Numbered from the stretch's first letter, positions 240-21,771 are shown. The stretch: 32,000 bases of DNA from Edaphobacter aggregans (GCF_003945235.1 NZ_RSDW01000001.1:5790001-5822000); one strand, 5' to 3'. Made by a program: numbers and translations. Notes: a model not told the origin generated them from the letters alone.

Positions 240-629
240 CTAGACGACCGATGGAGAAACGTAGGATTCGCCTTTGAGTGCCGACTGTATCGCGGCAACA
301 AGGTGGGTTTTCATGTGTGACTTGAGGACATATCCCAATGCCCCCTCTGCCAGGCACGCTTTAAGGAACTCTTCATTCGCATGGACTGTTAAGAACACAA
401 ACGTAGCGGAAAAATTAGAGTCACGCAATTGGCTGACGGCCTCGATCCCGTTCAAAACAGGCATGGTGATGTCAGTCACAATTACGTCTGGACGAAGACG
501 AAGAGCCTCCGACACAAGCATTGCGCCGTCAGTTGCAGTTCCCACTATATCGAAGTGGGGGTTCAAGATGGCGGTAGCAGCTTCGAGCAACGAGGGATGA
601 TCATCAGCCAACAAAACGGTGGTTTTCAT
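240..629 (-). CDS. Response regulator, receiver domain only (NarL/FixJ-like receiver without the LuxR-type HTH)
   Basis: 129 aa. It has the acidic pocket DD (LLADDHP), the phospho-acceptor context VIVTDITMP, and a conserved LTVH...K region. The protein stops right after ...GESYVSPSVV, where NarL-type regulators continue into a linker and HTH. Only 35 nt remain before the convergent receptor gene, so there is no room for an output domain. Confidence 0.85.
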   Translation of the reverse strand: MKTTVLLADDHPSLLEAATAILNPHFDIVGTATDGAMLVSEALRLRPDVIVTDITMPVLNGIEAVSQLRDSNFSATFVFLTVHANEEFLKACLAEGALGYVLKSHMKTHLVAAIQSALKGESYVSPSVV

Positions 630-3699: not shown

Positions 3700-3798
3700 A
3701 TCCGTTTGACGCATGCGTTAAGGCTCAGGAGGTTATTCGCTATGTCGCCGAAGCCTGAGCTACAACCTCTTCTCTCCGATTTCTGTTGGTTGAAGTAG
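3700..3798 (+). pseudogene. Decayed relic of a second glutaminase 3' end
   Basis: 3713-3798 aligns base-for-base, at roughly three quarters identity by eye, with glsA 3469-3554. VKAQEVIRYVAE is retained, then a premature TGA and a frame change, then LSYNLFSPISVG versus LNYNIFSPTSVGFK. The relic ends with the same ...gaagtag. Weaker similarity may extend back to about 3620. Confidence 0.6.
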
Positions 3799-3845
3799 CT
3801 CAGCGACGAAGTGAATCGCCGTCGCTTACAAGGAGGCGTCATTCA

Positions 3846-5501
3846 ATGACAGCTGGGATCTCCATCTGCAGAGATTTTCGAGAACGTCAGAGATTTCTTG
3901 TTCGCGCTTGCCTATCCGTAAGCCTGTTTTTGGTTGTGCATCCGTGTAACGCCCAATCGTCGACACCCTCGATATTCAATGGCCCCTCCGACGCAATCGA
4001 CGGTGCATCGTCGATTCCCAAAGTCAGCCCTCCCCTGACTGAACGAGAAGAGGAAATGTTGCGGCTCATTCAGAGTCTCCAGGATCGCGTCGCCCGGCTG
4101 GAGGCTGAGAGGGGGACTGATTCGAAGGATATAAACTTTGATACCGAAGTGGAGGCGAAGAAGGCCTCTGCAAATGTTCTAGCGGCGACTGTTGTTGCTG
4201 TACCGCCGACAAGCAGAGATATCGCGAATCCTATCGATGAAGCCGCGAGGTCGCCCGTTGACGGTGTGAAGAGTCTAGGTGGAAGCGCTAGTGGTGGCCA
4301 GGAAGAAAGAAAGTTTTGGAGCCCCTACACACCGAATCTTGGTTTCAAGATAGCCAATACCGAGTACGGAGACGTAAGCCTTAGCATCTATACCTACGCT
4401 CGCTATCTGAACCAACGGGCGATCGAGCCAACATATACAAACGCGTTCGGCGTTACCAGCAATCTCCAACAACGGCAGGATTTTCAACTCAACAAACTAC
4501 AAATAAAGTTTCTCGGCTGGATGATGAGTCCTAAATTCCGTTACTTCCTCTATGCATGGACCTCGAACGCCACACAGGGGCAAGGAGCTCAGGTCGTACT
4601 CGCTGGAAATCTGAATTACAGCTTCAATAAGTACCTCACCGTTGGCGCGGGAGTCTTCTCATTGCCGGGCGCGAGGAGCGTCGAAGGCAACTTTCCGTTC
4701 TGGCTGAGTGTTGATAGTCGACTAATAGCTGACGAGTTCTTTCGCCCCTCATATTCCTCAGGCATTAAGGCCAGTGGAACCATCGCGAAGGGGCTGAGTT
4801 ACCAAGCCATGGTCGCGAATAATCGGAGCACACTGGGTGTCAGCGCAGCCCAGCTTCCCAACCACTTCAATACTATTTCTTCTGTGCTCCTCTGGATGCC
4901 TAAGGGCGATTACGGATTAGGCTGGGGCGACTTTGAACATCATGAATCACCTGTTACTCGTTTTGGCTTCCATTTCAACCATAGTGACGAGAACAAGCAA
5001 AGCCAGCCAAACAGCGATTCATTCGAGAATGTTCAGCTCAGGCTCTCCGATGGCAGCGTAATCTTTACGCCTAATCTCTTCGGGCCAGGCATTACGATCA
5101 CCGATGCAAGATATAAGATGGCCTCCTTCGACGCGGGGATCAAGTATCGCGGCTATGCACTAGAAGGTGAATATTACTGGCAGTGGCTCAATGACTTCCG
5201 TGGCACGAATACTTCAGGGCTGCCAACGGATTATGCCTATGGGTATCAGCTTCAGGGCTCAGCGATGGTCATCCCCAAAGCGCTTCAGATCTATGCGGGA
5301 GGATCGGAGATCATTGGCCAGTTCGGCCGCCCGTGGGACTTTCGTGCGGGCACAAACTACTTCCCGTTCAAGAACAAGGTCGTGCGATGGAACTCCGAGT
5401 TCCTCTACTTGTACAGATCCCCTGTCGGCTACACATCCGTTCCTTTTCCACTGGGAGGCACCGGACCGATCTTTCATACAACTCTGGAGCTAGCTTTCTG
5501 A
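3846..5501 (+). CDS. Outer-membrane beta-barrel (porin-like) with N-terminal coiled coil; paralog of 20203-21771
   Basis: I prefer the ATG at 3846 (AAGGAGG 9 nt upstream) over the ORF-track start at 3786, which lies inside the glutaminase relic. The signal peptide ends at CNA-QSS. The coiled-coil segment reads EREEEMLRLIQSLQDRVARLEAE. The protein ends ...FHTTLELAF. It is about 60 percent identical by eye to the 20203-21771 product. Confidence 0.75.
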   Translation: MTAGISICRDFRERQRFLVRACLSVSLFLVVHPCNAQSSTPSIFNGPSDAIDGASSIPKVSPPLTEREEEMLRLIQSLQDRVARLEAERGTDSKDINFDTEVEAKKASANVLAATVVAVPPTSRDIANPIDEAARSPVDGVKSLGGSASGGQEERKFWSPYTPNLGFKIANTEYGDVSLSIYTYARYLNQRAIEPTYTNAFGVTSNLQQRQDFQLNKLQIKFLGWMMSPKFRYFLYAWTSNATQGQGAQVVLAGNLNYSFNKYLTVGAGVFSLPGARSVEGNFPFWLSVDSRLIADEFFRPSYSSGIKASGTIAKGLSYQAMVANNRSTLGVSAAQLPNHFNTISSVLLWMPKGDYGLGWGDFEHHESPVTRFGFHFNHSDENKQSQPNSDSFENVQLRLSDGSVIFTPNLFGPGITITDARYKMASFDAGIKYRGYALEGEYYWQWLNDFRGTNTSGLPTDYAYGYQLQGSAMVIPKALQIYAGGSEIIGQFGRPWDFRAGTNYFPFKNKVVRWNSEFLYLYRSPVGYTSVPFPLGGTGPIFHTTLELAF

Positions 5502-5562: not shown

Positions 5563-6657
5563 GTGAAACGCACTTCGGACAATCTGCTTCATAGGCTCGT
5601 TTTTGGCTTATGTCTATGTGTGTCGCTGTGTTCTACATCTGGAACTGCACAGACTAATCCTCCTAATCAATTTGAGCTGAACGATTCGCACTTTCATCTT
5701 ACGAACTACGTTCAAGAAGGCACTGATATACATGAATTCCTGAAGATTATGGGCACAAAGGTCGGGCGCGTCGCGCTGTTCGGAATTCCTCTTCAGCAGC
5801 AGTGGTCTTATCTGAACTCCGGCGATACTGCGCCCACGTATTACCTACAGACCGACTCGCCTCTCTACTACTACTCATTTACCGATGCGAATATCGCAAT
5901 GACATATCGGTCACTCTCCAAGGAAGATCAGGCGCGCTTCGAACCCATGATCACAGGCTTCAACCCGACCGACATGTATGCGGCTGATCACATTCGTCGC
6001 GTCCTGCAGACTTTTCCAGGAGTCTTTTCGGGAATTGGAGAGTTCACGATTCATAAAGAGTTTGTTTCCTCCAAGATCCCAGGAGAAACTGCCAATCTTC
6101 AGAACCGCGCTCTCGACAGGATTCTGGACTTTGCCGGCGAGGTCGGGCTCGTTGTCATAATCCACAGCGACATGGACGTGCCGTTCCCTAAGGAAGGTGC
6201 GCCGCCCGCATATCTTGATCAAATGAAGGCGCTCCTTAAACGGCATCCTAATACCACAATCATTTGGGCACATACCGGCTTAGGCCGAGTGGTTCGTCCT
6301 ATCAAGGATCACGCTGCCAATCTAGCGTTGATCCTAAGCGATCCTGCATTCAAACATGTCTATTTCGATATCTCATGGGACGAAGTAGCTAAGTACGTCG
6401 TCGCAACTCCTGAATCTACCCAGACTAGTGCCGACCTCATCAATCGTTTCCCGGATCGCTTTCTGTTCGGCACTGACGAGGTCGCACCTTCCAGCCAGGA
6501 GTCTTACTTGAAGGTCTTCTATCAATACGGTCCTCTTTGGAAGTTGCTTACACCGGAAGCAAGCGAGAAGGTCCGTAAAGGAAACTTCGCGCGTCTTTTC
6601 GACGAAGCACGACCCAAAGTAAGAGCGTGGGAAAGCACCCACGCTAGCGGAAAATAG
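5563..6657 (+). CDS. Exported metal-dependent amidohydrolase (Amidohydro_2/TIM-barrel type)
   Basis: The start is GTG with AAAGGAGG upstream. The signal peptide ends at GTA-QT. Metal-ligand-like motifs are DSHFHL, VVIIHSDMD, IIWAHTG and LFGTDE. Confidence 0.8.
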   Translation: MKRTSDNLLHRLVFGLCLCVSLCSTSGTAQTNPPNQFELNDSHFHLTNYVQEGTDIHEFLKIMGTKVGRVALFGIPLQQQWSYLNSGDTAPTYYLQTDSPLYYYSFTDANIAMTYRSLSKEDQARFEPMITGFNPTDMYAADHIRRVLQTFPGVFSGIGEFTIHKEFVSSKIPGETANLQNRALDRILDFAGEVGLVVIIHSDMDVPFPKEGAPPAYLDQMKALLKRHPNTTIIWAHTGLGRVVRPIKDHAANLALILSDPAFKHVYFDISWDEVAKYVVATPESTQTSADLINRFPDRFLFGTDEVAPSSQESYLKVFYQYGPLWKLLTPEASEKVRKGNFARLFDEARPKVRAWESTHASGK

Positions 6658-6681: not shown

Positions 6682-7650
6682 CTAAAAAGAAACCGCGGCC
6701 GAGATCTGCAGCGAGTATCCCTGCAGAGTTGACCTATTCGAGAATTCTCGAAAATACTTGAGGCCCAGGCTCACCTTTCGCGCTGGCAGCATTACGTTTG
6801 AAGCGAATCCAAGGGAGTTGACCCGATAGTGTGCCTTCGCCTGATCCGGTGTGATCGTTGGCCCACTCTTATCAGTCGTCTGCCACTGTTGGTAGCCCAC
6901 TAACCCCAGTTGTAGACGCAAATCACTTTTCAACGGAACGGTGTGCATTAGCGAATAGTCGAGATTAAGGGCTTGCCCCGGATGAATTCCAGTGCCTTCT
7001 TGAACACCGTGGAATTCATACAACTCGAACGCGGAAATTGAGGTCGCTTTGTTGTCGGTTAGATAAAAGGATTCGCCCCCCGCAACGCAATGAGTCCAGT
7101 AGCCCGAACCAACATTGCTGTTGGAACTGGCATCGAATCTGCCGGTAGGCGCTAGGAACCCGTAGATAGCACGAGCGTCAACACGTTTTGTCTTCCAGCC
7201 GAGAATAAAGGGTTGGTAGTAAGAGTCTGCAAATCCGCCTCCGCCGCTGATAGCCCCCTGAGCATTGGAAGTTAGCGAGTTGTTGGCGATGGGCAGCGTG
7301 GCCACAAAGGAGTAGACAGGGCTGCCCAACATCCCTATCTTCTTTTTGCTGACCCAGACGAAACTGTTCATGTCCATCAATACCGAATTTTGCCCGGTAG
7401 CAACGACTTCGCCGTTGGCACCCTTCAAATGGTCGCGTGAGTAAAACAGAAAGGCGTTTGAGTAGGTAAATCCTGGCTCCGGTGTAACCCCAGAGTTGGT
7501 GGCGGTCATCCCCAGGGGGTAGACACCCCTGACCTGAGCTTTACCGGGTGCAATCATCGTCCAGATGGTCATGACCAGACAAAATACGGCAAATGACGAA
7601 GGCACACAGTCTTTACTTACGACCTCAGACTCCTTTCCGCCCAGATTCAT
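6682..7650 (-). CDS. Outer-membrane channel of the MetA-pathway (Phenol_MetA_deg-like) transporter family
   Basis: The hydrophobic leader ends at GKA-QV. The sequence shows an alternating beta-strand pattern with GGGFADSYYQPFILGWK and GSGYWTH. The protein ends ...LQISAAVSF. It is the last gene of the DyP operon. Confidence 0.7.
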   Translation of the reverse strand: MNLGGKESEVVSKDCVPSSFAVFCLVMTIWTMIAPGKAQVRGVYPLGMTATNSGVTPEPGFTYSNAFLFYSRDHLKGANGEVVATGQNSVLMDMNSFVWVSKKKIGMLGSPVYSFVATLPIANNSLTSNAQGAISGGGGFADSYYQPFILGWKTKRVDARAIYGFLAPTGRFDASSNSNVGSGYWTHCVAGGESFYLTDNKATSISAFELYEFHGVQEGTGIHPGQALNLDYSLMHTVPLKSDLRLQLGLVGYQQWQTTDKSGPTITPDQAKAHYRVNSLGFASNVMLPARKVSLGLKYFREFSNRSTLQGYSLQISAAVSF

Positions 7651-7772
7651 CTGTGCATGCCCTCAAGACTGTGTAGGTTGCTGGCTGGTCCTTTGCTCCC
7701 CGCTGCGCTTCGCTAGCCAACGTGCAAAGGGGAAGAGGAGAACGAGGCCAACGATCGCAATCACAACGACCA

Positions 7773-8531
7773 TCACGGCCATCCGTGGGTCACTGAAGTT
7801 TGTTTAGCAACCACTAATGCAGCAGCGATATTGCGCTGCGCAGTGCCTAGTGCCATAACGCTTCTTGTCTTGACTGCAGGACCTCCAAGAAACCATCCGA
7901 TAATTGAACCAGCCACAAGGAGGAGGATGCTGGCAAGCACCCCTCGAGATACATATAAGCTCAGGATGTTTTGGATGTTCGCCACAAACATCAGCAGGAT
8001 TAGCAACATCAGGGCAAACTTTGACGCATTGCTGAACAAAGGTTCGATGCGGGCTGCAATACCTTCGAGGCCGGCCTTCACCGCAAGGCCAATTCCTAAC
8101 GGAAGCAACATGAGAAGGAGCAGGGAACTGGCGATCTTAGCGGGATCGACCGAAACTCCGCTGAGTAAAAGGGGCAATACTAATGGCATGTAGGCAACTG
8201 ACAAGATCATCAGCAGCACAGTCAAGCCGACAGAAAATGCAAGATCACCCTTAGCAATTCCTGCGAGCAGAGGAATGAATGGAGCCCCGGGCGCTGTTCC
8301 CAGCAACAACAGCGCGACACCCAAGGATCCGTCGAGTTGCAGTAGCCTTGCGATGGCCATTGCAGCTAGCGGCATCAGGACAAAATTTGCCAGCAGTGCG
8401 AAAGTGACTAGTCTGGCATTTCGCAACGGGGCAACGACCCGGCCCACAGTGAGACTCAAACCCACGGCAAGCATGGATGAAACGACAAAAATAATCGTCG
8501 ATAGAGAAGCCGCTTTATTTACGAATTCCAT
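7773..8531 (-). CDS. Bile acid:sodium symporter (BASS/SBF-like) family transporter, apparently frameshifted near the 3' end
   Basis: The protein is polytopic and hydrophobic, with GTAPGAPFIPLLA and ALGTAQRNIAAALVVA motifs. The ORF stops 8 codons after the A-run at 7798-7802. The expected last TM helix is encoded in another frame down to 7663 (see findings). Confidence 0.8.
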   Translation of the reverse strand: MEFVNKAASLSTIIFVVSSMLAVGLSLTVGRVVAPLRNARLVTFALLANFVLMPLAAMAIARLLQLDGSLGVALLLLGTAPGAPFIPLLAGIAKGDLAFSVGLTVLLMILSVAYMPLVLPLLLSGVSVDPAKIASSLLLLMLLPLGIGLAVKAGLEGIAARIEPLFSNASKFALMLLILLMFVANIQNILSLYVSRGVLASILLLVAGSIIGWFLGGPAVKTRSVMALGTAQRNIAAALVVAKQTSVTHGWP

Positions 8532-8600
8532 GAACCTTCACCTAATTCGAATCTCATCTCGATGCTTCAGAGTCGGTGATGGTGTTCCTACGACAGGCAT

Positions 8601-9632
8601 CTATTTGGAGTGAAGCGGAGTCATCGCAAGGTTTCGCCAGAAATTCTCCAGGGACTCTACACCGCCAAAAAGCGTTGTAAATATTGTGGAATCGGCCAAC
8701 AGAATGTCCCCTGCGCGACTTCCGGTAGGTGGCATCCAAAGGAAATTGTTGAACTCGGTATTTCCTGCTTCTGTGAAGGGATGCGGTCTGGACAGATCGA
8801 TCGGTTGCGAAGCCAAAATGCGAATCGACTTCGTATCGTCAGTGGTCAAGGCGTAGTGTGGCAGATGCGGATGGAAGTTAAATGTCGTAACTCCTTTGAG
8901 CCAGCCACGCGAATCCAGATCTCTCAATGTGTTGAGTGGAGCAATTTGATTTGTTCCTTTGACAACTGCAGGACGAAGACCGTAGCGATTTTCAACAGGT
9001 ACTCCCAGGCCTTTCATCAGGGAGCGCGTGTACTTTCCAAAGCGTTGCTGACGCGGCACCAAAGGATCACCGTGGTGGGCATACTCCATCGCCCGTTCCT
9101 TTTGGTCGGACGAGACACCCACGTCGTGGTGTGGACCAAGGATCAGGCATGTCCCTTCCCGCGTAAGAAACTGTTGAATCGCTTCGATCTCTTCTAGGGT
9201 GGCTTCCTGCTCCGTAACCATGTGGTCAAGACCAAACACCATCAAAGTGTCAGTGTCTGCGAGCACACCCGCGTCGATAGGGCATCTCTGCCCCGCCTGG
9301 TCAATCCGCTGATAAACCGCGACTGGTTGTTCTGTTGCCTCACCTACTACCCGCTGAAACGTCAACGTCGATAGGTGGAACAACTCAAGCGTTCCAGAGA
9401 TCCCTTGCAGAAACATCTGTGCTGAAAACTCCGGGGTCTCGTAATTCGGCCACGCTACGCGGCGAACTTCGGTGATCGTTGAGAAGCGATTATCCAGTTC
9501 TGTTACATCTCGATTCGCTTCCCATGGATAACTCCATGTCCAATAAATGCTGAATCGCCGCTTGCCCGAAGCATATTTTCTTGGTAGCTGTATCTGGTTA
9601 TAGGTACGTGGTCCGGATTTTGAGTTACTCAT
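8601..9632 (-). CDS. Hypothetical cytoplasmic protein (343 aa), no family recognised
   Basis: This is a long ORF in the operon, 21 nt after the DyP stop, with AAAGGGA before the ATG. It has no signal peptide. His-containing motifs are FGLDHM, LILGPHHDVG, EYAHHGDP and FHPHLPHY. The segment DTLMVFGLDH...EEIEAIQQFLTREGTCLILGPHHD is loosely reminiscent of a ThuA/GATase1-like fold, but that is speculation. Confidence 0.7.
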   Translation of the reverse strand: MSNSKSGPRTYNQIQLPRKYASGKRRFSIYWTWSYPWEANRDVTELDNRFSTITEVRRVAWPNYETPEFSAQMFLQGISGTLELFHLSTLTFQRVVGEATEQPVAVYQRIDQAGQRCPIDAGVLADTDTLMVFGLDHMVTEQEATLEEIEAIQQFLTREGTCLILGPHHDVGVSSDQKERAMEYAHHGDPLVPRQQRFGKYTRSLMKGLGVPVENRYGLRPAVVKGTNQIAPLNTLRDLDSRGWLKGVTTFNFHPHLPHYALTTDDTKSIRILASQPIDLSRPHPFTEAGNTEFNNFLWMPPTGSRAGDILLADSTIFTTLFGGVESLENFWRNLAMTPLHSK

Positions 9633-9653
9633 CTCAATCCCTTTCTCCAGGAT

Positions 9654-10994
9654 TCATGCAGAACGGGCCTGGCTCCTATCTGAGAGTGCCGCAAGGTATC
9701 GCAGCGCCCTGATACCCGGCAGGAAGAAGTAAGCTCCCCCTCGCAAGGTCGTAAAAGACGGCAGGCCTGTGATCTTCCTCCGAATGGGTCGTTTTGGGAT
9801 GGTCATGTCAAAGCTTCCATCCTGTGTGCCAAAAATCGGATCGCGTTCGTTACCTAGCTCGTGAAAATTGGGATCGTTCACCCATACGTTCATCGCAAAC
9901 TCAAACTGTCGCACGAGACTCGCGCAACCGATGAACGCCGCAATCCCCCGTTCTATCCCATCCTCAGGCTTGCCCTCCGGCAACGGCGGACCGTACGTCC
10001 CCCCCCGCCGAATCATCCTTCTCCGCTGCATGTTTGCCGCCGTATCTCGCGGGTTCATGCGCCGAATATGCGAGCCGAGCGGACACCCATAGCCGTACGG
10101 GTCCATCTTGGCGTAGTTGAAATCGTTCGTGCGCTTCATGTCTCCGCCGAGCTCCGGGTCGTCTTTGTCAGGCGTCAGCACCAGCGGAGCGCCGCTGCGC
10201 CATCGGCCCATCAGCTTCGCGGCAATCCATTCCTGCTGCTCCGGTGTCGCGCCGTTTTGCCGCAGAAAATCGCGAAAGGCCCCAACGTGTTCCTCGAGCC
10301 TGAGGTACGCGAGATAGCTGCCGTTGTGCGAAAGAATCTCCGGTTGCGGCAGCCCGGCAGGCGGTCCGTTTTCATCCGGATAACCGAGAAAAAATTCTCC
10401 GGCATTAATCGGAGGGCCAGAGCCGGGAGTTGGTTCACCATCAATTCCCTTGATGTAGGGCTGCGACAGGCGATCGCGATACCCAAAGTGCTCATGTGCG
10501 TATGTAAAAGGAGGAATCGCTTCCAGATCGAGCGACGACAAAACCTTCACTCTATCGCATTGGAGAAGGTGTTCCCGATGCTCCTGCCTGCATCGTTCGC
10601 GCTCGGCGACATCTCGGGCGAACAAGACAACAATGGCATGAAGATCAGGACTCGCTAGCCCTCCCACCCAGTGCTTTGGATCGTTGTCGCCCGTAGCGCC
10701 GACGATCTCCGCACGGGCAGCCATACCTTGACGAAACTCCTCAGGAAATGTGGCAAGAGACGTTTCATCAACCCCAAGAGCTCGCAAGCCGTTCCAGGTA
10801 AAGGCCACACTCACCCACCTGGTGTACGAGTCATTGGATTCGATAGCTTTTGCAGTGCCGACTTTTTCTAGAATCCCGTTGAGCCACTCGCGCGCTCCGG
10901 CATTCTGTCGAAACGTTAGAAATTCATATCTCGCTGCAAGAGCGTGTGGTCGCGAAATCAGGAAGTGCTGAATGTCTTCGATTTCAAGCCTCAT
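9654..10994 (-). CDS. DyP-type (dye-decolorizing) heme peroxidase, cytoplasmic
   Basis: GAGGAGGG precedes the ATG. The N-terminus is DIQHFLI... The GXXDG-like motif is EHFGYRDRLSQP, with the Asp retained. The proximal-His context is PLGSHIRRMNPRD. MIRRGGTYG is also present. There is no Tat/Sec signal. Confidence 0.9.
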   Translation of the reverse strand: MRLEIEDIQHFLISRPHALAARYEFLTFRQNAGAREWLNGILEKVGTAKAIESNDSYTRWVSVAFTWNGLRALGVDETSLATFPEEFRQGMAARAEIVGATGDNDPKHWVGGLASPDLHAIVVLFARDVAERERCRQEHREHLLQCDRVKVLSSLDLEAIPPFTYAHEHFGYRDRLSQPYIKGIDGEPTPGSGPPINAGEFFLGYPDENGPPAGLPQPEILSHNGSYLAYLRLEEHVGAFRDFLRQNGATPEQQEWIAAKLMGRWRSGAPLVLTPDKDDPELGGDMKRTNDFNYAKMDPYGYGCPLGSHIRRMNPRDTAANMQRRRMIRRGGTYGPPLPEGKPEDGIERGIAAFIGCASLVRQFEFAMNVWVNDPNFHELGNERDPIFGTQDGSFDMTIPKRPIRRKITGLPSFTTLRGGAYFFLPGIRALRYLAALSDRSQARSA

Positions 10995-11067
10995 GTGCCC
11001 TCCTCAAATCACATCTCGAGGTTGCGAGCTAGGAGAAAAACAACATTCATGCACCAGAAGAGTGCCG

Positions 11068-11646
11068 CTACTGCATCAGGTCGAGCATTCCGGAAAAGGT
11101 CGCCTTGAGTTTCAGTGCCTTCTTGATCTCATCTGCGGAGACATACGGATACTCTCCGTATTCCAGAAAGCTCGGGCGTTGGTGTTCACGAACGAACCGA
11201 ACGAATGCCGGAGTATTTGTCTTCCAGTCCTCTGGAAATCCTTCGAGGTTTTCAAAGACAGTGTTCAAGCCATATTGGGAGAACAACGCTACTGCGTCTT
11301 CGGTGTACTTATCAAAATCGGTGTCGAAGATTCCTTGATACATGAAATATGTATCGTTCCCAATGTCGAAGAGAACCCATCGCAGGTAATGAAGTTTGAG
11401 CGTTGCAAGTGCTTCCGGCAACCCTGCGATTGTCTTCTCGATTGTCTTGCCATATTCGCGGATAACATCCTCTCGCCCAGGCTTGATCTTCGCAATGATC
11501 GTGAATCCATAACAGGCCGGTGTTCGAGGATAGAGCGGTCCGTATCTTCCATTTTGGAGTGTGAAATACCCCTCTTTTGGAATGGCCATCGCTTGGGGTT
11601 TGGTTGGATCAATTTCCTTTTCGGGTGCGACTGCTGGAGTTGCCAT
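11068..11646 (-). CDS. Hypothetical protein (192 aa), first gene of the DyP operon
   Basis: I prefer the ATG at 11646 (GGGAGGAG 6 nt upstream) over the ORF-track start at 11667. The sequence is soluble-like: GFTIIAKIKPGREDVIREYG, LHYLRWVLFD, GIFDTDFDKYTEDA. I do not recognise a family. An alpha+beta-barrel-like fold is a guess. Confidence 0.75.
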   Translation of the reverse strand: MATPAVAPEKEIDPTKPQAMAIPKEGYFTLQNGRYGPLYPRTPACYGFTIIAKIKPGREDVIREYGKTIEKTIAGLPEALATLKLHYLRWVLFDIGNDTYFMYQGIFDTDFDKYTEDAVALFSQYGLNTVFENLEGFPEDWKTNTPAFVRFVREHQRPSFLEYGEYPYVSADEIKKALKLKATFSGMLDLMQ

Positions 11647-11713
11647 ATCATCTCCTCCCAAGATCACAGGCTGCGATAGACAGAAGGCTATGCGGAGCCA
11701 ACGAAGACCGAAA

Positions 11714-11729
11714 CTAGGAAAATCCCCAG
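11714..11729 (-). promoter_or_regulatory. Palindromic box copy C (gene-sense CTGGGGATTTTCCTAG, 14/16), upstream of the DyP operon
   Basis: It abuts TTTCGG (11713-11708). A 17-nt spacer follows, then TAGCCT (11690-11685). The start codon is at 11646. Confidence 0.55.
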
Positions 11730-12797: not shown

Positions 12798-14294
12798 CTA
12801 CCTCCGCCGTCCACCGCCACGGGCGCCGCCGCCACCTCGAGATCCCATACTTCGAGATCCCATGCTGGAGGCGCCCCGGTTGCTGCTGGCGCGTGCGCTT
12901 GATCCGCTGAACCCTCCAGATCCACCTCCAAATGCACCCCGGTTTCCACCGCCGCTGCCCCGCGAAAGATCCCGACTTCCTGCACTGGTTCCGCCTCCGC
13001 CAAGTCCTCCGCCACGCGCGCCTCCGCCAGTTCCTCCCCCTCGATCGCCTCCCCCAAGTCCTCCGGATCGATTGCCCAGACCGCCTCCTGCCTCTCGATT
13101 GCTGGCTAAATTGCCGCCCTCTCGGCCAATCTGCTGCCTTGCGCTCGCTTGACGATTAGCCAGCGAGTCGCCCCGAGCCGAACCGCCAAATCGATCCGCC
13201 GTTCCACGATCCCCATAGGGAGCGCCACCGCGATGTTCCGGGTTATGCTGCCACTTGTTGCCTGCATTGCCACCTGCAGGCAGTTGCGACGGCCGGTTGC
13301 CAGCGCCACCAACACCTCCAACTCCACCGGCGCCACCAACACCTCCTACTCCGCCAGCGCCACCTACGCCACCGGGACGACCAGCACCACCTACGCCGCC
13401 TGCACCACCGACACCTCCAACTCCTCCGGCACCACCCCGAGAGGGTAGTTGGGAAGGTCGGTTGCCGCCGCCAATGTTCGTGTTGCGATTGAAATTATTG
13501 TTGCGGTTGATCGTGATGTCGTTGTTACCACCCCAGCCGCACCCCCAGCCCCAACCGCCACCCCAGAATGCGCCCATCGCTATACCAACGCCGAAAGAGA
13601 TCGCCATCCCCGCGGCATAGTAACCGGGAGGCGGATAGTAAATAGGAGGGTAAGGATACACCGGTGGTCCATACACTACTACTGGATTGTAAGAAGGAAC
13701 GTACACCACTTGAGGATTCGCCTGCTCGATGACGATCGTGCTCTTGCTTTCGATGACCTTGGTCTCTACTTTTTGCTGTTCACTCGACTTCAGATTGCCG
13801 GTTCCCTGGGCCTTCTTACGCATTCGCTGGACTGCATCCATCACATCGCTTTGCTGTGCGAGAAACGCGTTGCCGAGATCCGTCGTCCACTGGATATCGT
13901 CCGCCAGGCGCTTGACTAGGTCAGGCAGTCCGGCCAGAGCCTGGACGCTTGGATCCCATGTCTGCTTGGCCACAGCATCGGCGAGGGCTTTATCTTTCAG
14001 CCCCGGATTTTTCGCAAGCCACTGTTGGAGTTGAATAATCTCAAGCGGATACGTGGAGGCGGCAAGGGTTTGGGCCAACATCGGATCTGGAAAAAGCGCA
14101 ATCGGTGCAACCAGTGAATCCAATTGGTCCGAAGGAATCTTGGTAGCCGGTGCAGGCGATGTCGTCGATGCCGCCTGTGGCGGAGAAGGGGACTGCAACT
14201 CCGCCACTGTGTCACCTGGCACGATAACGATGGCGCAGAGGACTACCGTCAAACGTCGAAGTCCTGCTGCGAATGTTTCAGTCTTCGGATTCAT
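12798..14294 (-). CDS. DUF3300 family exported protein with a long Gly/Arg/Ser-rich C-terminal low-complexity region
   Basis: GGAGGGA precedes the ATG. The DUF3300 core reads LDSLVAPIALFPDPMLAQTLAASTYPLEIIQLQQWL...WDPSVQALAGLPDLVKRLADDIQWTTDLGNAFLAQQSDVMDAVQRMRKKAQ. A Pro/Tyr-rich segment follows, then GWGWGCGWGG, then about 250 aa of G/R/S-rich sequence ending GGGRRR. Confidence 0.85.
   Translation of the reverse strand: MNPKTETFAAGLRRLTVVLCAIVIVPGDTVAELQSPSPPQAASTTSPAPATKIPSDQLDSLVAPIALFPDPMLAQTLAASTYPLEIIQLQQWLAKNPGLKDKALADAVAKQTWDPSVQALAGLPDLVKRLADDIQWTTDLGNAFLAQQSDVMDAVQRMRKKAQGTGNLKSSEQQKVETKVIESKSTIVIEQANPQVVYVPSYNPVVVYGPPVYPYPPIYYPPPGYYAAGMAISFGVGIAMGAFWGGGWGWGCGWGGNNDITINRNNNFNRNTNIGGGNRPSQLPSRGGAGGVGGVGGAGGVGGAGRPGGVGGAGGVGGVGGAGGVGGVGGAGNRPSQLPAGGNAGNKWQHNPEHRGGAPYGDRGTADRFGGSARGDSLANRQASARQQIGREGGNLASNREAGGGLGNRSGGLGGGDRGGGTGGGARGGGLGGGGTSAGSRDLSRGSGGGNRGAFGGGSGGFSGSSARASSNRGASSMGSRSMGSRGGGGARGGGRRR
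13303..13436 (-). repeat. In-frame 9-nt periodic repeat encoding (GGA/GGV)n inside the DUF3300 gene
   Basis: The + strand reads ccaccaacacctccaactccaccggcgccacc... in repeated units. On the coding strand this gives GGAGGVGGVGGAGGVGGAGRPGGVGGAGGVGGVGGAGGVGGVGGAG. Confidence 0.7.
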
Positions 14295-14450: not shown

Positions 14451-14466
14451 CTAGGGAAAACCCTTA
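14451..14466 (-). promoter_or_regulatory. Palindromic box copy D (gene-sense TAAGGGTTTTCCCTAG, 13/16), upstream of DUF3300-DUF2950
   Basis: It abuts TATCGG (14450-14445). A 17-nt spacer follows, then TAGGCT (14427-14422). The start codon is at 14294. A weaker look-alike, CAAGGGATTCCCGAA, with one central base fewer, lies at about 14323-14337 in the leader. Confidence 0.5.
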
Positions 14467-15815: not shown

Positions 15816-15831
15816 TTAGGAAAATCCCTAA
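15816..15831 (-). promoter_or_regulatory. Palindromic box copy E (gene-sense TTAGGGATTTTCCTAA, 13/16), upstream of the membrane-protein gene
   Basis: It abuts TTGTCC (15815-15810). A 17-nt spacer leads to AAAGCT (15792-15787), only 1 nt before the ATG at 15785. Confidence 0.5.
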
Positions 15832-16921: not shown

Positions 16922-16937
16922 CTAGGGAAATCCCTAA
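16922..16937 (-). promoter_or_regulatory. Palindromic box copy F (gene-sense TTAGGGATTTCCCTAG, 15/16), upstream of the OmpA-family gene
   Basis: It abuts TTGCTA (16921-16916). A 17-nt spacer follows, then AAACAT (16898-16893). The start codon is at 16808. Confidence 0.6.
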
Positions 16938-17083: not shown

Positions 17084-17099
17084 CTAGGGATTTCCCTAG
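17084..17099 (+). promoter_or_regulatory. Palindromic box copy G (CTAGGGATTTCCCTAG, perfect 7-bp arms), upstream of DUF4136-DUF481
   Basis: It abuts TTGTAG (17100-17105). A 17-nt spacer follows, then TAGAAA (17123-17128). The start codon is at 17256. Confidence 0.6.
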
Positions 17100-19178: not shown

Positions 19179-20156
19179 CTACTCCGAAAGCTCCGGATAG
19201 AGTAGACGCGATCGGCCCATCCAGAAGCTATTGCTCCTGCGTGTGAGCGGCCCTGGAGAGCGGCCGTATAACCGGGCCTCGGCCTCATGAAAAGGACCGA
19301 CAAAACGCACAGAGCGGGGAACGCCCGGATATAGCAGAGGCAACAGGCGAGTAGCCGACCGCAATGCCTTTTCTTCCCGTGCGCCGAAGGATAGCTCAAA
19401 AGCGGTACGGAGTCGCGGCGGCATCCAAAAGGCGGTGAGTGCTCGATACCAGCACGGAGGACGAACCCAGGTGCCGGCACCGGACAGAATACTGTGGCCC
19501 AACAAGCGCGCGTTCTCGTCAACGCCCAACAGCGGCGATTCGATCATCTGTGCGGTGTATCGGACAAACGCGGACCAGTCCGTGGGGAGTGCCCCTGCGG
19601 GTATGCCAAAAAGCGCAGCTATTCGCTTGCTCTCACAGTAGTACTGCTCACGCTCATCTGACGAAAGCGGCGGCAGGACAAATTCGTAAGCCAAAATAGC
19701 ACTCTCGGCCAGGGTAGCGTAGACCCAGCAGAGTGCCTTGATTTCATTAGCTTCGTAATGCTCGCCGAGCGGGCGAGCCCCGACTGCATGAGGCAATTCA
19801 CCGCTGATGCCAGTATGAAGCTGGTAGACCCGTCTGGACGCTGCGATGGCTTGTGCGCGGCTACCGAATAGCATCGTGTAGATCACGCGAAAGGTTGAGT
19901 GAAAACGACCGATGGCATCGTTCATCAGGTTGGAGTGATGGAGGAGCGAAGCCGCAACCCAAGGGTGAGCTAATTGCAATAAAGCCGCACGCCCGGCACC
20001 GAGAAAGATGGCAGATTCTCGGTTCACTCGCCAAGTCACTGAATTTGGCCCGAAGAAACCGCAGCGAGGACCACCGGGTAGTTGTTCGAGTTCGGAAATC
20101 TGTTGCTCAATGTCTCCGTGGGAGACATACTGCGGAGATTCGCTTTCAGACATCAT
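19179..20156 (-). CDS. DUF2236 / MpaB-type oxygenase family protein
   Basis: Motifs are SVTWRVNRESAIFLGAGRAALLQLAHPWVAASLLHHS and RRVYQLHTGISG. There is no signal peptide. It lies directly downstream of the porin paralog on the same strand. Confidence 0.8.
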   Translation of the reverse strand: MMSESESPQYVSHGDIEQQISELEQLPGGPRCGFFGPNSVTWRVNRESAIFLGAGRAALLQLAHPWVAASLLHHSNLMNDAIGRFHSTFRVIYTMLFGSRAQAIAASRRVYQLHTGISGELPHAVGARPLGEHYEANEIKALCWVYATLAESAILAYEFVLPPLSSDEREQYYCESKRIAALFGIPAGALPTDWSAFVRYTAQMIESPLLGVDENARLLGHSILSGAGTWVRPPCWYRALTAFWMPPRLRTAFELSFGAREEKALRSATRLLPLLYPGVPRSVRFVGPFHEAEARLYGRSPGPLTRRSNSFWMGRSRLLYPELSE

Positions 20157-20202: not shown

Positions 20203-21771
20203 TTAGAACGCCATCTCCAAATTTGAATGGAATACAAATCCGTGACCTCCCACTGTGAACGGAGCAGATGAATAACCCACGGGAGAGTTATAGAGGTACA
20301 GCCCCTCGGTGTTCCACCGAAGAACTCTGTTCTTCCAGGGAAACCAGTTCATTCCTGCACGAACATCCCATGGATGCCCGTACTTGCCGAAGACCGTCGA
20401 CCCGCCTAAGTACAACTGAAAAGTTTTGGGCACCACCATGGTCGATGTTTGCAGTTGAAAGCCATGGTCGAAGATTTGAGACAGACCAGCGGTGCCGGGA
20501 CCAACGAAGTTGTTTAGCCATCGAAAGTAATACTCACCCTCTACTGCATACCCGTGATACTTCACTCCACTGTCGACAGAGGTCATATGATAATTCACAT
20601 CGTTGACCGTGATGCCTGGCCCAAATAGGTTGGGCGTAAAAATAATGCTTCCGTCCGTAAGCCGGATTTGTGTGTTTGCGAACTGATCGGTGTTCGGCTG
20701 GCTCTGCTTGGTCTCATGGCTCGTCGTAAAGTGAACCCCCAAACGAGTCGCGACACTTTCGTGATGTTCAAAATCGCCAAAGCCCCCTCCAAATTCGCCG
20801 GTCGAGGGAGCCCAGACCAGCGCGGTTGACACAGTGTTAAGTCCATTGTCGAGCTGGAGCGCGCCCACGCCGAGTTGGCTCAGGTTATTGCCAAGCATGA
20901 CCTGATATCTCAGTTTGTTGGTGATCAGACCTTTGGCCCAGATTCCGGACGTGTAAGAGGGCCGGAAAAACTCGTCTGCGATTTGGCGGGTGTCCACGCT
21001 AAGCCAATTAGGAAAGTTGCCTTCAAGGGTCCGCACACCTGGCAGGGCGTTAATGCCGCCAGACAGAGTGATGTATTTATTGAAGGTATAGTTCAGGTTC
21101 CCGGCGACCACCACCTGAGCACCTTGACCCTGTGAGGCATTTGAAGTCCATGTGTAGAGGAAGTAGCGAAACTTGGGATTCATGAGCCAGCCGAGAAACT
21201 TCAACTGAACCTTCAGGATCTGAAAGTTGTTCTGCTTTATGACTGAGTTGACATTGCCAAAGTAGTTGGTACTCGAATCGGCGAGTCCCAGTTGGTTGAG
21301 GTAGCGCACATAGGAATAGAGGCTTATGTTCATATCTCCATAATTGGTGTCCGCAACCTTGAAGCCTAGTTGGGGCGTGTAGGTGCCCCACTTCCTTCCG
21401 GCCTCCGCAATCGTCTGGGTATCGGCAGGGCGATTAGATTCACCAGATGCCGGGATGGAAGCTACGGCTGAGGTGAGTACCTGTGGTTCCGCAGCTTGGC
21501 TGGATTCCGGAACTTTACCCGATGGCGTAACAAGTCTCTGGCGCAGAACTTGAATCTGATCAATCAGTTCTTCATTCTGTTTTTCGAGTTGCTTGTTTTG
21601 TTCGACTAACTGGTCAACTTTATTGAGGATGTCCGACGTACTCTGCGCCTGCCTGTTTGCGACGTTCGCCCCATTCGGCTGAGATTGGGCGTTTACAGCA
21701 CTCGTCCAACTCGCCAAAAGAGCCAATGTCAGAAGAGAATGCCGTGTTGCTCTGCTAAATAGCTGTTTCAC
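20203..21771 (-). CDS. Outer-membrane beta-barrel (porin-like) with N-terminal coiled coil; paralog of 3846-5501
   Basis: The start is GTG with GAGGAGG 5 nt upstream. The signal peptide ends at VNA-QS. The coiled-coil segment is LNKVDQLVEQNKQLEKQNEELIDQIQVLRQRL. The barrel body is collinear with the 3846-5501 product and ends ...FHSNLEMAF. Confidence 0.8.
   Translation of the reverse strand: MKQLFSRATRHSLLTLALLASWTSAVNAQSQPNGANVANRQAQSTSDILNKVDQLVEQNKQLEKQNEELIDQIQVLRQRLVTPSGKVPESSQAAEPQVLTSAVASIPASGESNRPADTQTIAEAGRKWGTYTPQLGFKVADTNYGDMNISLYSYVRYLNQLGLADSSTNYFGNVNSVIKQNNFQILKVQLKFLGWLMNPKFRYFLYTWTSNASQGQGAQVVVAGNLNYTFNKYITLSGGINALPGVRTLEGNFPNWLSVDTRQIADEFFRPSYTSGIWAKGLITNKLRYQVMLGNNLSQLGVGALQLDNGLNTVSTALVWAPSTGEFGGGFGDFEHHESVATRLGVHFTTSHETKQSQPNTDQFANTQIRLTDGSIIFTPNLFGPGITVNDVNYHMTSVDSGVKYHGYAVEGEYYFRWLNNFVGPGTAGLSQIFDHGFQLQTSTMVVPKTFQLYLGGSTVFGKYGHPWDVRAGMNWFPWKNRVLRWNTEGLYLYNSPVGYSSAPFTVGGHGFVFHSNLEMAF

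Follow-up and report, generated by a model that had tools for sequence, protein, structure and literature searches.

A DyP-type peroxidase gene of Edaphobacter aggregans and two unnamed protein families inherited with it across bacterial phyla

The subject of this study is a five-gene operon on a 32,000-nucleotide (nt) stretch of DNA from Edaphobacter aggregans (GCF_003945235.1, NZ_RSDW01000001.1:5790001-5822000), which as a whole is called the window and from whose first letter all positions are counted. The operon occupies the minus strand from 11646 down to 6682 and encodes, in this order, a protein of an unnamed family (A192), a DyP-type heme peroxidase (DyP), a protein of a second unnamed family (C343), an inner-membrane transporter (BASS) and an outer-membrane protein (OMP) (Table 1). 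All five genes are co-directional and separated by gaps of 73, 21, 69 and 122 nt, which reproduces exactly the arrangement given in the first-pass annotation of this DNA. Whereas the enzyme at the center of the operon is known, its partners A192 and C343 are new and undescribed, and the module that they form with the peroxidase is widespread.

Table 1. Coordinates of the operon, of associated sites in the window and of related gene groups at other loci (loci numbered with the prefix L)
Feature	Position or locus	Strand	Description
A192	11068..11646	-	192 amino acids, putatively cytoplasmic, unnamed family
DyP	9654..10994	-	446 amino acids, predicted class V (former C/D) DyP-type heme peroxidase, without signal peptide
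C343	8601..9632	-	343 amino acids, putatively cytoplasmic, unnamed, very highly conserved family
BASS/SBF inner-membrane transporter gene	7663..8531	-	open reading frame as annotated ends at 7773 (8531..7773, fragment of 252 amino acids); frameshift-corrected end at 7663
OMP, MetA-pathway (Phenol_MetA_deg) outer-membrane β-barrel	6682..7650	-	322 amino acids, signal peptide
Operator-like box CTAGGAAAATCCCCAG	11714..11729	.	7-2-7 palindrome, 68-83 nt 5′ of the A192 start codon
Terminator-like hairpin	6624..6645	-	just 3′ of the OMP stop codon; consensus match alone
CTAGGGAAATCCCTAG sites	709-724, 832-847, 11714-11729, 14451-14466, 15816-15831, 16922-16937, 17084-17099		palindrome with up to 3 mismatches
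Sister-module loci	L092-L097 and L098-L177		catalase-like gene, one to four A192-like genes and DyP
Second cluster, divergent from the main module	L074 758-5854		two tandem A192-like genes, DyP (44% identity), DUF4331, TPR protein
Divergent C343 + PLP decarboxylase-like pairs	L081 2650-5833; L083 4775-7960; L084; L085; L086; L087 4458-8151; L091 4838-7969		

The start of A192 was placed at the ATG that lies 5 nt after a GGAGGAG, while the listing of open reading frames (ORFs) begins instead at GTG 11667; homologues of A192 are 192-193 amino acids long. Of the A192, DyP, C343 and OMP products, OMP alone exhibits an N-terminal hydrophobic segment on the Kyte-Doolittle scale, with a maximum over 12 residues of 2.3 in its signal peptide and of 1.2, 0.65 and -0.2 in the three soluble proteins. 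The earlier statement that these three proteins lack signal peptides is thereby supported. The hairpin behind OMP probably marks the end of the operon; this is only suggestive, as the number of such hairpin-type sites in the region is no higher than in shuffled controls.

The three soluble genes are inherited together across phyla. In a scan covering one genome per species C343 was found in at least 595 loci, of which, as in each scan of this study, the best 80 were taken for study. C343 identity in these 80 loci ranges from 73 to 86% (median 77%, never below 73%), and their hosts belong to Acidobacteriota, Alphaproteobacteria, Myxococcota, Bacteroidota, Gemmatimonadota, Eremiobacterota and others, including Minicystis rosea (Myxococcota) as well as Flavihumibacter petaseus and Cytophagales (Bacteroidota). 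Cultured hosts of the module include Flavihumibacter petaseus NBRC 106054, Minicystis rosea DSM 24000, Nostoc sp. ATCC 53789 and several Streptomyces NBC strains. Linkage was counted in the 68 loci that have 4 kb or more of flanking sequence on either side, and in all 68 of them A192 and DyP lie co-directionally within 4.5 kb of C343. Co-occurrence of the three soluble genes, which had been proposed as a check on the operon, is thus complete in the loci counted; the linkage extends over at least eight phyla, and neither of the two unnamed proteins turned out to belong to a well-characterised family unrelated to DyP function.

Three gene orders were observed. The order of the window, A192-DyP-C343-OMP, is one of them; in Alphaproteobacteria the order is C343-A192-DyP without OMP, and in Bryobacterales and relatives it is A192-flavoprotein-C343-OMP-DyP, where the DyP is only 42-46% identical while C343 is 73-79% identical. 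Among the accessory genes, a MetA-type OMP follows C343 in 49 of the 68 loci, a SthA-like flavoprotein gene occurs in 21 (418.7 bits to the Si-specific transhydrogenase model, whose cut-off is 465) and BASS in nine, whereas a catalase-like gene occurs in none. Measured against family-level relatives, dN is 0.07-0.2 and dS is saturated, with dN/dS below 0.1 (about 0.08 for A192). Since this saturation of synonymous sites is found within the family as well, it is constraint, not a very recent transfer, that accounts for the high protein identity between phyla, and the three genes are under strong purifying selection.

The module is also mobile. On plasmid pNsp_c of Nostoc sp. ATCC 53789 (L089, 4372-13898) the genes A192-peroxidase-C343-MarC lie between IS1 fragments and a TnsA-type (Tn7-like) gene, and a near-identical copy of the module is found on a second plasmid of this strain, a setting that is direct evidence of mobility. 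A linear plasmid of Streptomyces carries the order A192-C343-DyP, followed by a gene of the SBF family. With toxin-antitoxin, AIPR, PIN and Tn7 genes among the plasmid neighbours, a function in anti-phage defence was also considered; it was rejected, as no PADLOC match was obtained and most chromosomal contexts are not defence islands.

The closest match of the peroxidase in the PDB is DrDyP from Deinococcus radiodurans (8RE2/8RE3; E 4.5e-100, residues 3-437), and further class V matches are 7anv, 6fsk, 4au9, 2d3q, 4g2c and 5c2i. The curated models of Pfam (DyP_N, 24.1 bits, cut-off 27.5) and NCBIfam (TIGR01413, 75.2 bits, cut-off 100.5) did not reach their thresholds, so that this lineage is poorly represented in them; the assignment to class V is therefore decided by the PDB matches. 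Across 11 aligned DyPs, which represent all module types, G171, D174 (the distal Asp), H309 (the proximal His) and R329/R330 (the distal Arg) are invariant, and D174, H309 and R329/R330 align with D189, H324 and R348 of DrDyP. By these matches the window protein is classed as a class V DyP-type peroxidase, for which heme binding and activity are predicted. Its GXXDG motif reads GYRDR and thus carries Arg instead of Gly at the fifth position, where DrDyP has a Met (PMC10820274). The heme of DrDyP purified alone is six-coordinate and low-spin, and the enzyme shows no activity at pH 7.5 (PMC10820274). The DrDyP gene adjoins that of the catalase-like protein DR_A0146, whose product has no catalase activity (PMC6300522). 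For DyP peroxidases in general, the physiological roles were termed unclear in a review (PMC8197335).

Single-sequence searches as well as shallow and more diverse profiles of A192 yielded no match in Pfam, NCBIfam, PADLOC or the PDB sequences. The family is nevertheless large, with 7539 database homologues, of which all named ones are called 'hypothetical protein'. Its signature is KPG ... LHxxR[WFY]V ... FDxD[FW]DxYxxD, and the residues K55-P56-G57, H86, D98, D108, D110, D112, Y114 and D117 are invariant throughout the family. The motifs singled out by the first-pass annotation, LHYLRWVLFD and GIFDTDFDKY in A192 and LILGPHHDVG and EYAHHGDP in C343, do occur, and they coincide with the best-conserved alignment columns of the two families. 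Both AlphaFold2 models were built with homologues at least 79% identical, and as only such close homologues were supplied both are poor (A192: pLDDT 55). Top Foldseek matches of the A192 model are dimeric α+β-barrel proteins, namely sugar mutarotases, Dabb, ABM and IsdG (E 8e-3 to 0.1); for 7byu, 1x8d, 1q4r, 4dn9 and 1xbw the probability is 0.9-0.98, on a low-confidence model. The order of secondary-structure elements in this low-confidence model fits a ferredoxin-like β-α-β-β-α-β arrangement, with no profile match in the PDB. These matches hint at an α+β barrel, but A192 is about twice as long as a single barrel subunit and has no sequence-profile match to such proteins. The idea that A192 is a split-off DyP domain was discarded, as an hhalign comparison of the A192 and DyP families gave a probability of 0.14. 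Antisense to A192, an ORF of 235 amino acids is present at 10972-11679 (+), with similar ORFs at 16 related loci; rather than a gene, it is most likely a side effect of how strongly A192 is conserved.

Distant relatives of A192 (24-31% identity) still lie directly 5′ of DyP genes, in six of six annotated plasmid records and in L074. Wherever it was found, the A192 family tracks the DrDyP-like DyP lineage. The six plasmid records, from Sphingomonas, Agrobacterium, Ketogulonicigenium, Microvirga, Brucella and Rhodococcus, encode in this order a 'catalase family protein', an A192-like protein and a DyP, except that in Rhodococcus the catalase-like gene follows DyP; Pfam, NCBIfam and the PDB sequences did not confirm this RefSeq label. 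A metagenome scan seeded by distant A192 members yielded at least 490 relatives. Flanks of 1.5 kb or more on either side are available in 26 metagenome loci; a DyP gene lies within 800 nt in 23 of these and a catalase-like gene is present in 23, and two to four tandem A192-like copies are present in 17 of the 80 metagenome loci kept. The DyPs of this sister module are 37-45% identical to the window DyP and have kept all catalytic residues. On the plasmids of Sphingomonas, Agrobacterium and Brucella it adjoins genes for a thioesterase, a patatin-like phospholipase, an oleate hydratase, a 3-hydroxyacyl-CoA dehydrogenase and a TetR regulator, and efflux genes are also among its neighbours. Both modules thus have a DyP of the same lineage with a member of the A192 family directly upstream, but in the sister module the catalase-like partner takes the place of C343, the neighbours are lipid and efflux genes and the A192-like gene is often multiplied. 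In L074, DUF4331 is the third alternative for this position (Table 1). The third partner is therefore exchangeable, being either C343, the catalase-like protein (with its unconfirmed label) or DUF4331. No description of the sister module was found in the literature, and nothing relevant turned up there on the gene neighbourhoods of DyPs, on DUF4331 or on a DyP together with a catalase-related protein or with oleate hydratase.

C343 likewise gave no match in Pfam, NCBIfam, PADLOC or the PDB sequences, neither as a single sequence nor with profiles, and its divergent members had no Pfam match even at E up to 1. Its database homologues number at least 5845, all named ones again being 'hypothetical protein', and a representative library comprises 933 clusters at E up to 1e-3. 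In an alignment that includes full-length divergent members (34-46% identity), H168, H169, H186, H187, H254, H256 and H284 as well as D136, E183, D189 and D314 are invariant, and H259 is near-invariant. From its composition, this pattern of His and acidic residues is a probable metal site. The C343 model (pLDDT 61.5, pTM 0.73) has the ThuA-like protein 1t0b as its best Foldseek match (E 1e-2, probability 0.97, TM-score 0.38 query / 0.50 target), followed by flavodoxin-like folds, which gives a hint of a ThuA/flavodoxin-like fold. Compared with ThuA-like and class I glutamine amidotransferase-like proteins, C343 is about 100 residues longer than ThuA. It has no conserved nucleophile Cys and no profile match to PF06283, and we know of no such His-rich signature in the ThuA family. 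For both unnamed proteins, the suggested check of family and fold thus left them outside characterised families and yielded in Foldseek only weak similarities (E above 1e-3) on low-confidence models.

Other assignments of C343 were dismissed. An HDAC- or LmbE-like deacetylase, as might be suspected from the PHH and HHGD motifs, is unlikely from the spacing of these motifs and their secondary-structure context, and no Pfam match was obtained. A conserved RRF that resembles part of a Tat signal lies inside a predicted β-strand, and no hydrophobic stretch comes after it. Eight of eight 'long' homologues in the representative library, which could have been fusions, are Arg-rich out-of-frame (frameshift) artefacts.

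The divergent C343 members are not located beside DyPs. Instead, their genes follow, at a distance of 1-3 nt, a gene for a pyridoxal phosphate (PLP) enzyme of about 740 amino acids, whose best NCBIfam model is tyrosine decarboxylase (342.6 bits, cut-off 905.3). One divergent C343 gene instead precedes the gene of a 904-residue OKR_DC_1 decarboxylase. Genes for M4, M28 or M36 metallopeptidases and for emfourin are often found near these pairs. Divergent C343 and PLP decarboxylase thus constitute a second undescribed gene pair, which is translationally coupled.

The BASS gene is recognised by Pfam (SBF, PF01758; E 2.1e-22, 80.2 bits, cut-off 24.3) and OMP matches PF13557 (Phenol_MetA_deg; E 4e-33) over 233 of 242 profile positions. 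In three-frame translation the BASS reading frame is broken near 7797-7808, where a run rich in A contains a shift of 1 nt. Beyond it the shifted frame reads FSDPRMAVMVVVIAIVGLVLLFPFARWLAK, aligns with the intact homologues in L069 and L026 and carries the last transmembrane helix, which is missing from the main frame; the corrected stop codon at 7665-7663 lies 12 nt before the ATG of OMP. Both the frameshift and the shorter gap had been predicted, and comparison with intact homologues bears them out. The shift could be due to a pseudogene or to a sequencing error. SBF carriers were recruited separately in Acidobacteriota and in Streptomyces, the SBF gene of the Streptomyces plasmid being only 30% identical to the window BASS. 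Alphaproteobacterial and Nostoc versions of the module contain neither the outer-membrane channel nor BASS. The complete route from outside to cytoplasm that the first-pass annotation had proposed is therefore not part of the conserved core, given the counts of both genes and the frameshifted BASS; what stands is that a link to a transported small molecule is plausible, as an SBF gene also follows the module on the Streptomyces plasmid.

Upstream of A192 lies the box CTAGGAAAATCCCCAG, a 7-2-7 palindrome with the consensus CTAGGGA-AA-TCCCTAG. When up to three mismatches are allowed, the palindrome CTAGGGAAATCCCTAG has seven distinct sites in the window, all of them intergenic, compared with 0.14 in shuffled sequence, and the same box is located about 90-140 nt 5′ of A192 in four other genomes (L001, L002, L003 and L028). 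That the operon sits behind such a box, as stated earlier, is thus corroborated by over-representation and by conservation. Inverted heptamers in a 7-2-7 arrangement are the layout bound by response regulators of the NarL/LuxR type, and the box is accordingly a candidate operator of such a regulator. Genes for LuxR-type and receiver-only regulators recur near the module in loci of Acidobacteriaceae, and in the window a receiver-only response regulator gene at 240-629 (-) adjoins two boxes. The genes behind the boxes encode a DcaP-type porin and a glutaminase, the A192 operon, DUF3300-DUF2950, a membrane protein of 408 amino acids, an OmpA-like protein and DUF4136-DUF481. Within the DUF3300 gene (12798-14294), tandem repeats of 9 nt and 27 nt at 12987-13451 encode a Gly-rich low-complexity tail (GGAGGVGGV...).

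Two further observations concern the surroundings of the operon. At 19179-20156 (-) the window encodes an MpaB/Lcp-type protein (rubber-oxygenase catalytic domain; PF09995, E 1.7e-46), a member of another heme-dependent oxygenase family. Two ORFs of 571 and 522 amino acids without any Pfam match, at 3786-5501 (+) and 20203-21771 (-), are inverted repeats with 70-77% nucleotide identity over about 400 nt and probably encode paralogous outer-membrane proteins.

How the components of the module might work together can be proposed as follows. In the reading that we prefer, and to which we give somewhat less than an even chance, the operon encodes a cytoplasmic DyP that needs A192 as a dedicated partner and that, jointly with C343 as a metal enzyme, processes an aromatic compound taken up from outside. 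A192 would be an accessory subunit dedicated to the DyP, probably a small ligand-binding protein of the α+β-barrel type, which may open or activate the heme site at cytoplasmic pH or may present the substrate or capture a substrate or radical product. Such an activating or substrate-presenting partner is an attractive idea, given that isolated DrDyP is inactive at neutral pH. C343 would be a metal enzyme with His ligands, either supplying the oxidant or acting, ahead of the peroxidase step or after it, on the same small molecule. The substrate might be an exogenous aromatic or phenolic compound, probably an anionic one, as suggested by the recurrent MetA-type channel together with the independently recruited SBF carriers; in diderm hosts it would enter through this channel and, where present, through the BASS carrier. 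In E. aggregans the operon would be switched by a response-regulator-type operator that it has in common with envelope and porin genes.

Several points weigh against this proposal. The roles of A192 and C343 are inferred, both proteins being known here from their sequences, and no Foldseek match of either model reaches an E-value of 1e-3. The C343 representative library contains no fusion protein that would support physical contact among the partners. With the transport genes absent from many versions of the module and BASS broken in the window, the data can be accounted for without an imported substrate. The lipid genes next to the sister module point to lipid hydroperoxides rather than to aromatics, and the C343 paralogue beside an Orn/Lys/Arg-type decarboxylase weakens the thread that leads to a phenolic substrate. 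A more general version of the proposal, which we consider rather doubtful, would regard all DrDyP-like class V DyPs as the catalytic subunit of a multi-protein machine. A192, as its universal second subunit, would be required for the six-coordinate inactive heme to become active at neutral pH. The chemistry would be set by a third, exchangeable subunit (C343, the catalase-like protein or DUF4331), and C343 would then represent a new family of His-rich metalloenzymes that also partners PLP decarboxylases.

The lipid genes beside the sister module lend themselves to a different explanation, namely a defence against organic or lipid hydroperoxides, in which DyP, A192 and a third redox protein would reduce membrane hydroperoxides under envelope or oxidative stress. 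The substrate would be endogenous, and the outer-membrane channel and BASS would be incidental. The SthA-like NAD(P)H flavoprotein of the 21 loci could supply reducing equivalents in this case, and the box regulon with its OmpA-like protein, porins, DUF4136/DUF481 proteins and glutaminase is rich in envelope functions. Yet neither catalase-like nor lipid genes adjoin the C343-type module in any of the 68 loci, 72% of these loci have the outer-membrane channel close behind C343, and the pairing of C343 relatives with PLP decarboxylases would be left unexplained; such a defence is regarded as unlikely. Little probability is also given to a handling of metal or heme iron in the manner of EfeUOB, in which the DyP would oxidise a metal ion or strip the metal from a porphyrin and the His-rich C343 would bind the metal. 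This is the porphyrin or metal-removal idea of the first-pass annotation, for which no specific support was found. Roles of DyPs in iron uptake (EfeB/FepB) and in Mn oxidation (DyP2) are on record (PMC8197335). Eight conserved His and several invariant Asp/Glu residues in C343, and the invariant acidic motif DxDxDxY in A192, would suit this role, but the three proteins are cytoplasmic and devoid of Tat or Sec signals, no EfeO-, EfeU- or permease-type gene is present in the operon or among its recurrent neighbours, and the operator is not Fur-like. Moreover, BASS carriers move organic anions, not metals.

The unusually high conservation of C343 across phyla and the tandem A192-like genes, up to four in number, might be expected if A192 or C343, or both, assembled into a scaffold or cage around the DyP, as a non-encapsulin counterpart of the encapsulin-DyP nanocompartment, whose cargo DyPs are of another class (PMC8197335). 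This appears very improbable in view of the lack of any HK97-like or BMC-like match, of fold hints that point to ordinary small enzymes or ligand-binding proteins, and of C343 relatives that pair with decarboxylases in the absence of A192. That the genes are neighbours by chance, or that A192 and C343 are spurious ORFs, has nothing in its favour beyond the absence of a family annotation; it is refuted by the co-occurrence, which is seen in all 68 loci, in several phyla, in three different gene orders and also on plasmids, as well as by a dN/dS below 0.1 and by thousands of homologues per family, so that its probability is practically nil.

The first-pass annotation knew of no DyP system with this composition, and none was found in the literature, nor was any paper on the A192 or the C343 family; the DyP contexts given in a 2021 review are EfeUOB/FepABC, encapsulin cargo and DtpA-sco only (PMC8197335). 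With EfeUOB/FepABC the module shares a DyP encoded in an operon with a partner that looks metal-binding and with membrane transport genes (PMC8197335). However, EfeB is of class I, exported by the Tat pathway and controlled by Fur, whereas the window DyP is assigned to class V, predicted to be cytoplasmic and preceded by a candidate operator of the 7-2-7 type. The partners belong to unrelated families, the membrane genes are those of a BASS carrier and a MetA-type outer-membrane barrel, and no EfeO (cupredoxin/M75) or EfeU domain was found in the operon or its recurrent neighbours. The encapsulin-DyP system resembles the module in the reliance of its DyP on a non-enzymatic partner that is dedicated to it and encoded alongside (PMC8197335), a dependence that for the window module is a proposal. 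Its cargo is of class P and thus of another DyP class, while the module lacks a gene for an HK97-fold shell and its partners of 192 and 343 residues have different predicted folds; no operon gene or recurrent neighbour matched encapsulin or Linocin_M18. Lacking a Tat signal, EfeO and EfeU as well as a shell gene, the module stands outside both systems.

The closest resemblance is to DrDyP (DR_A0145; 8RE2/8RE3), which like the window DyP is a cytoplasmic class V enzyme with a non-canonical fifth residue in the GXXDG motif (Met there, Arg here) and is encoded beside a second, catalytically odd redox protein. This neighbour, DR_A0146, is catalase-like and not a C343; as a catalase-like gene adjoins the DyP gene, the DR_A0145/DR_A0146 neighbourhood resembles the sister module. 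C343 is hereby flagged as a large, extremely conserved, unannotated His-rich family, and A192 may serve as a genomic marker, at the family level, for DrDyP-like DyPs. Work on DrDyP has been confined to the isolated protein, and the inheritance of two unnamed families with its lineage in hundreds of soil bacteria offers a testable reason for its inactivity, namely that the partners were missing from the assays.

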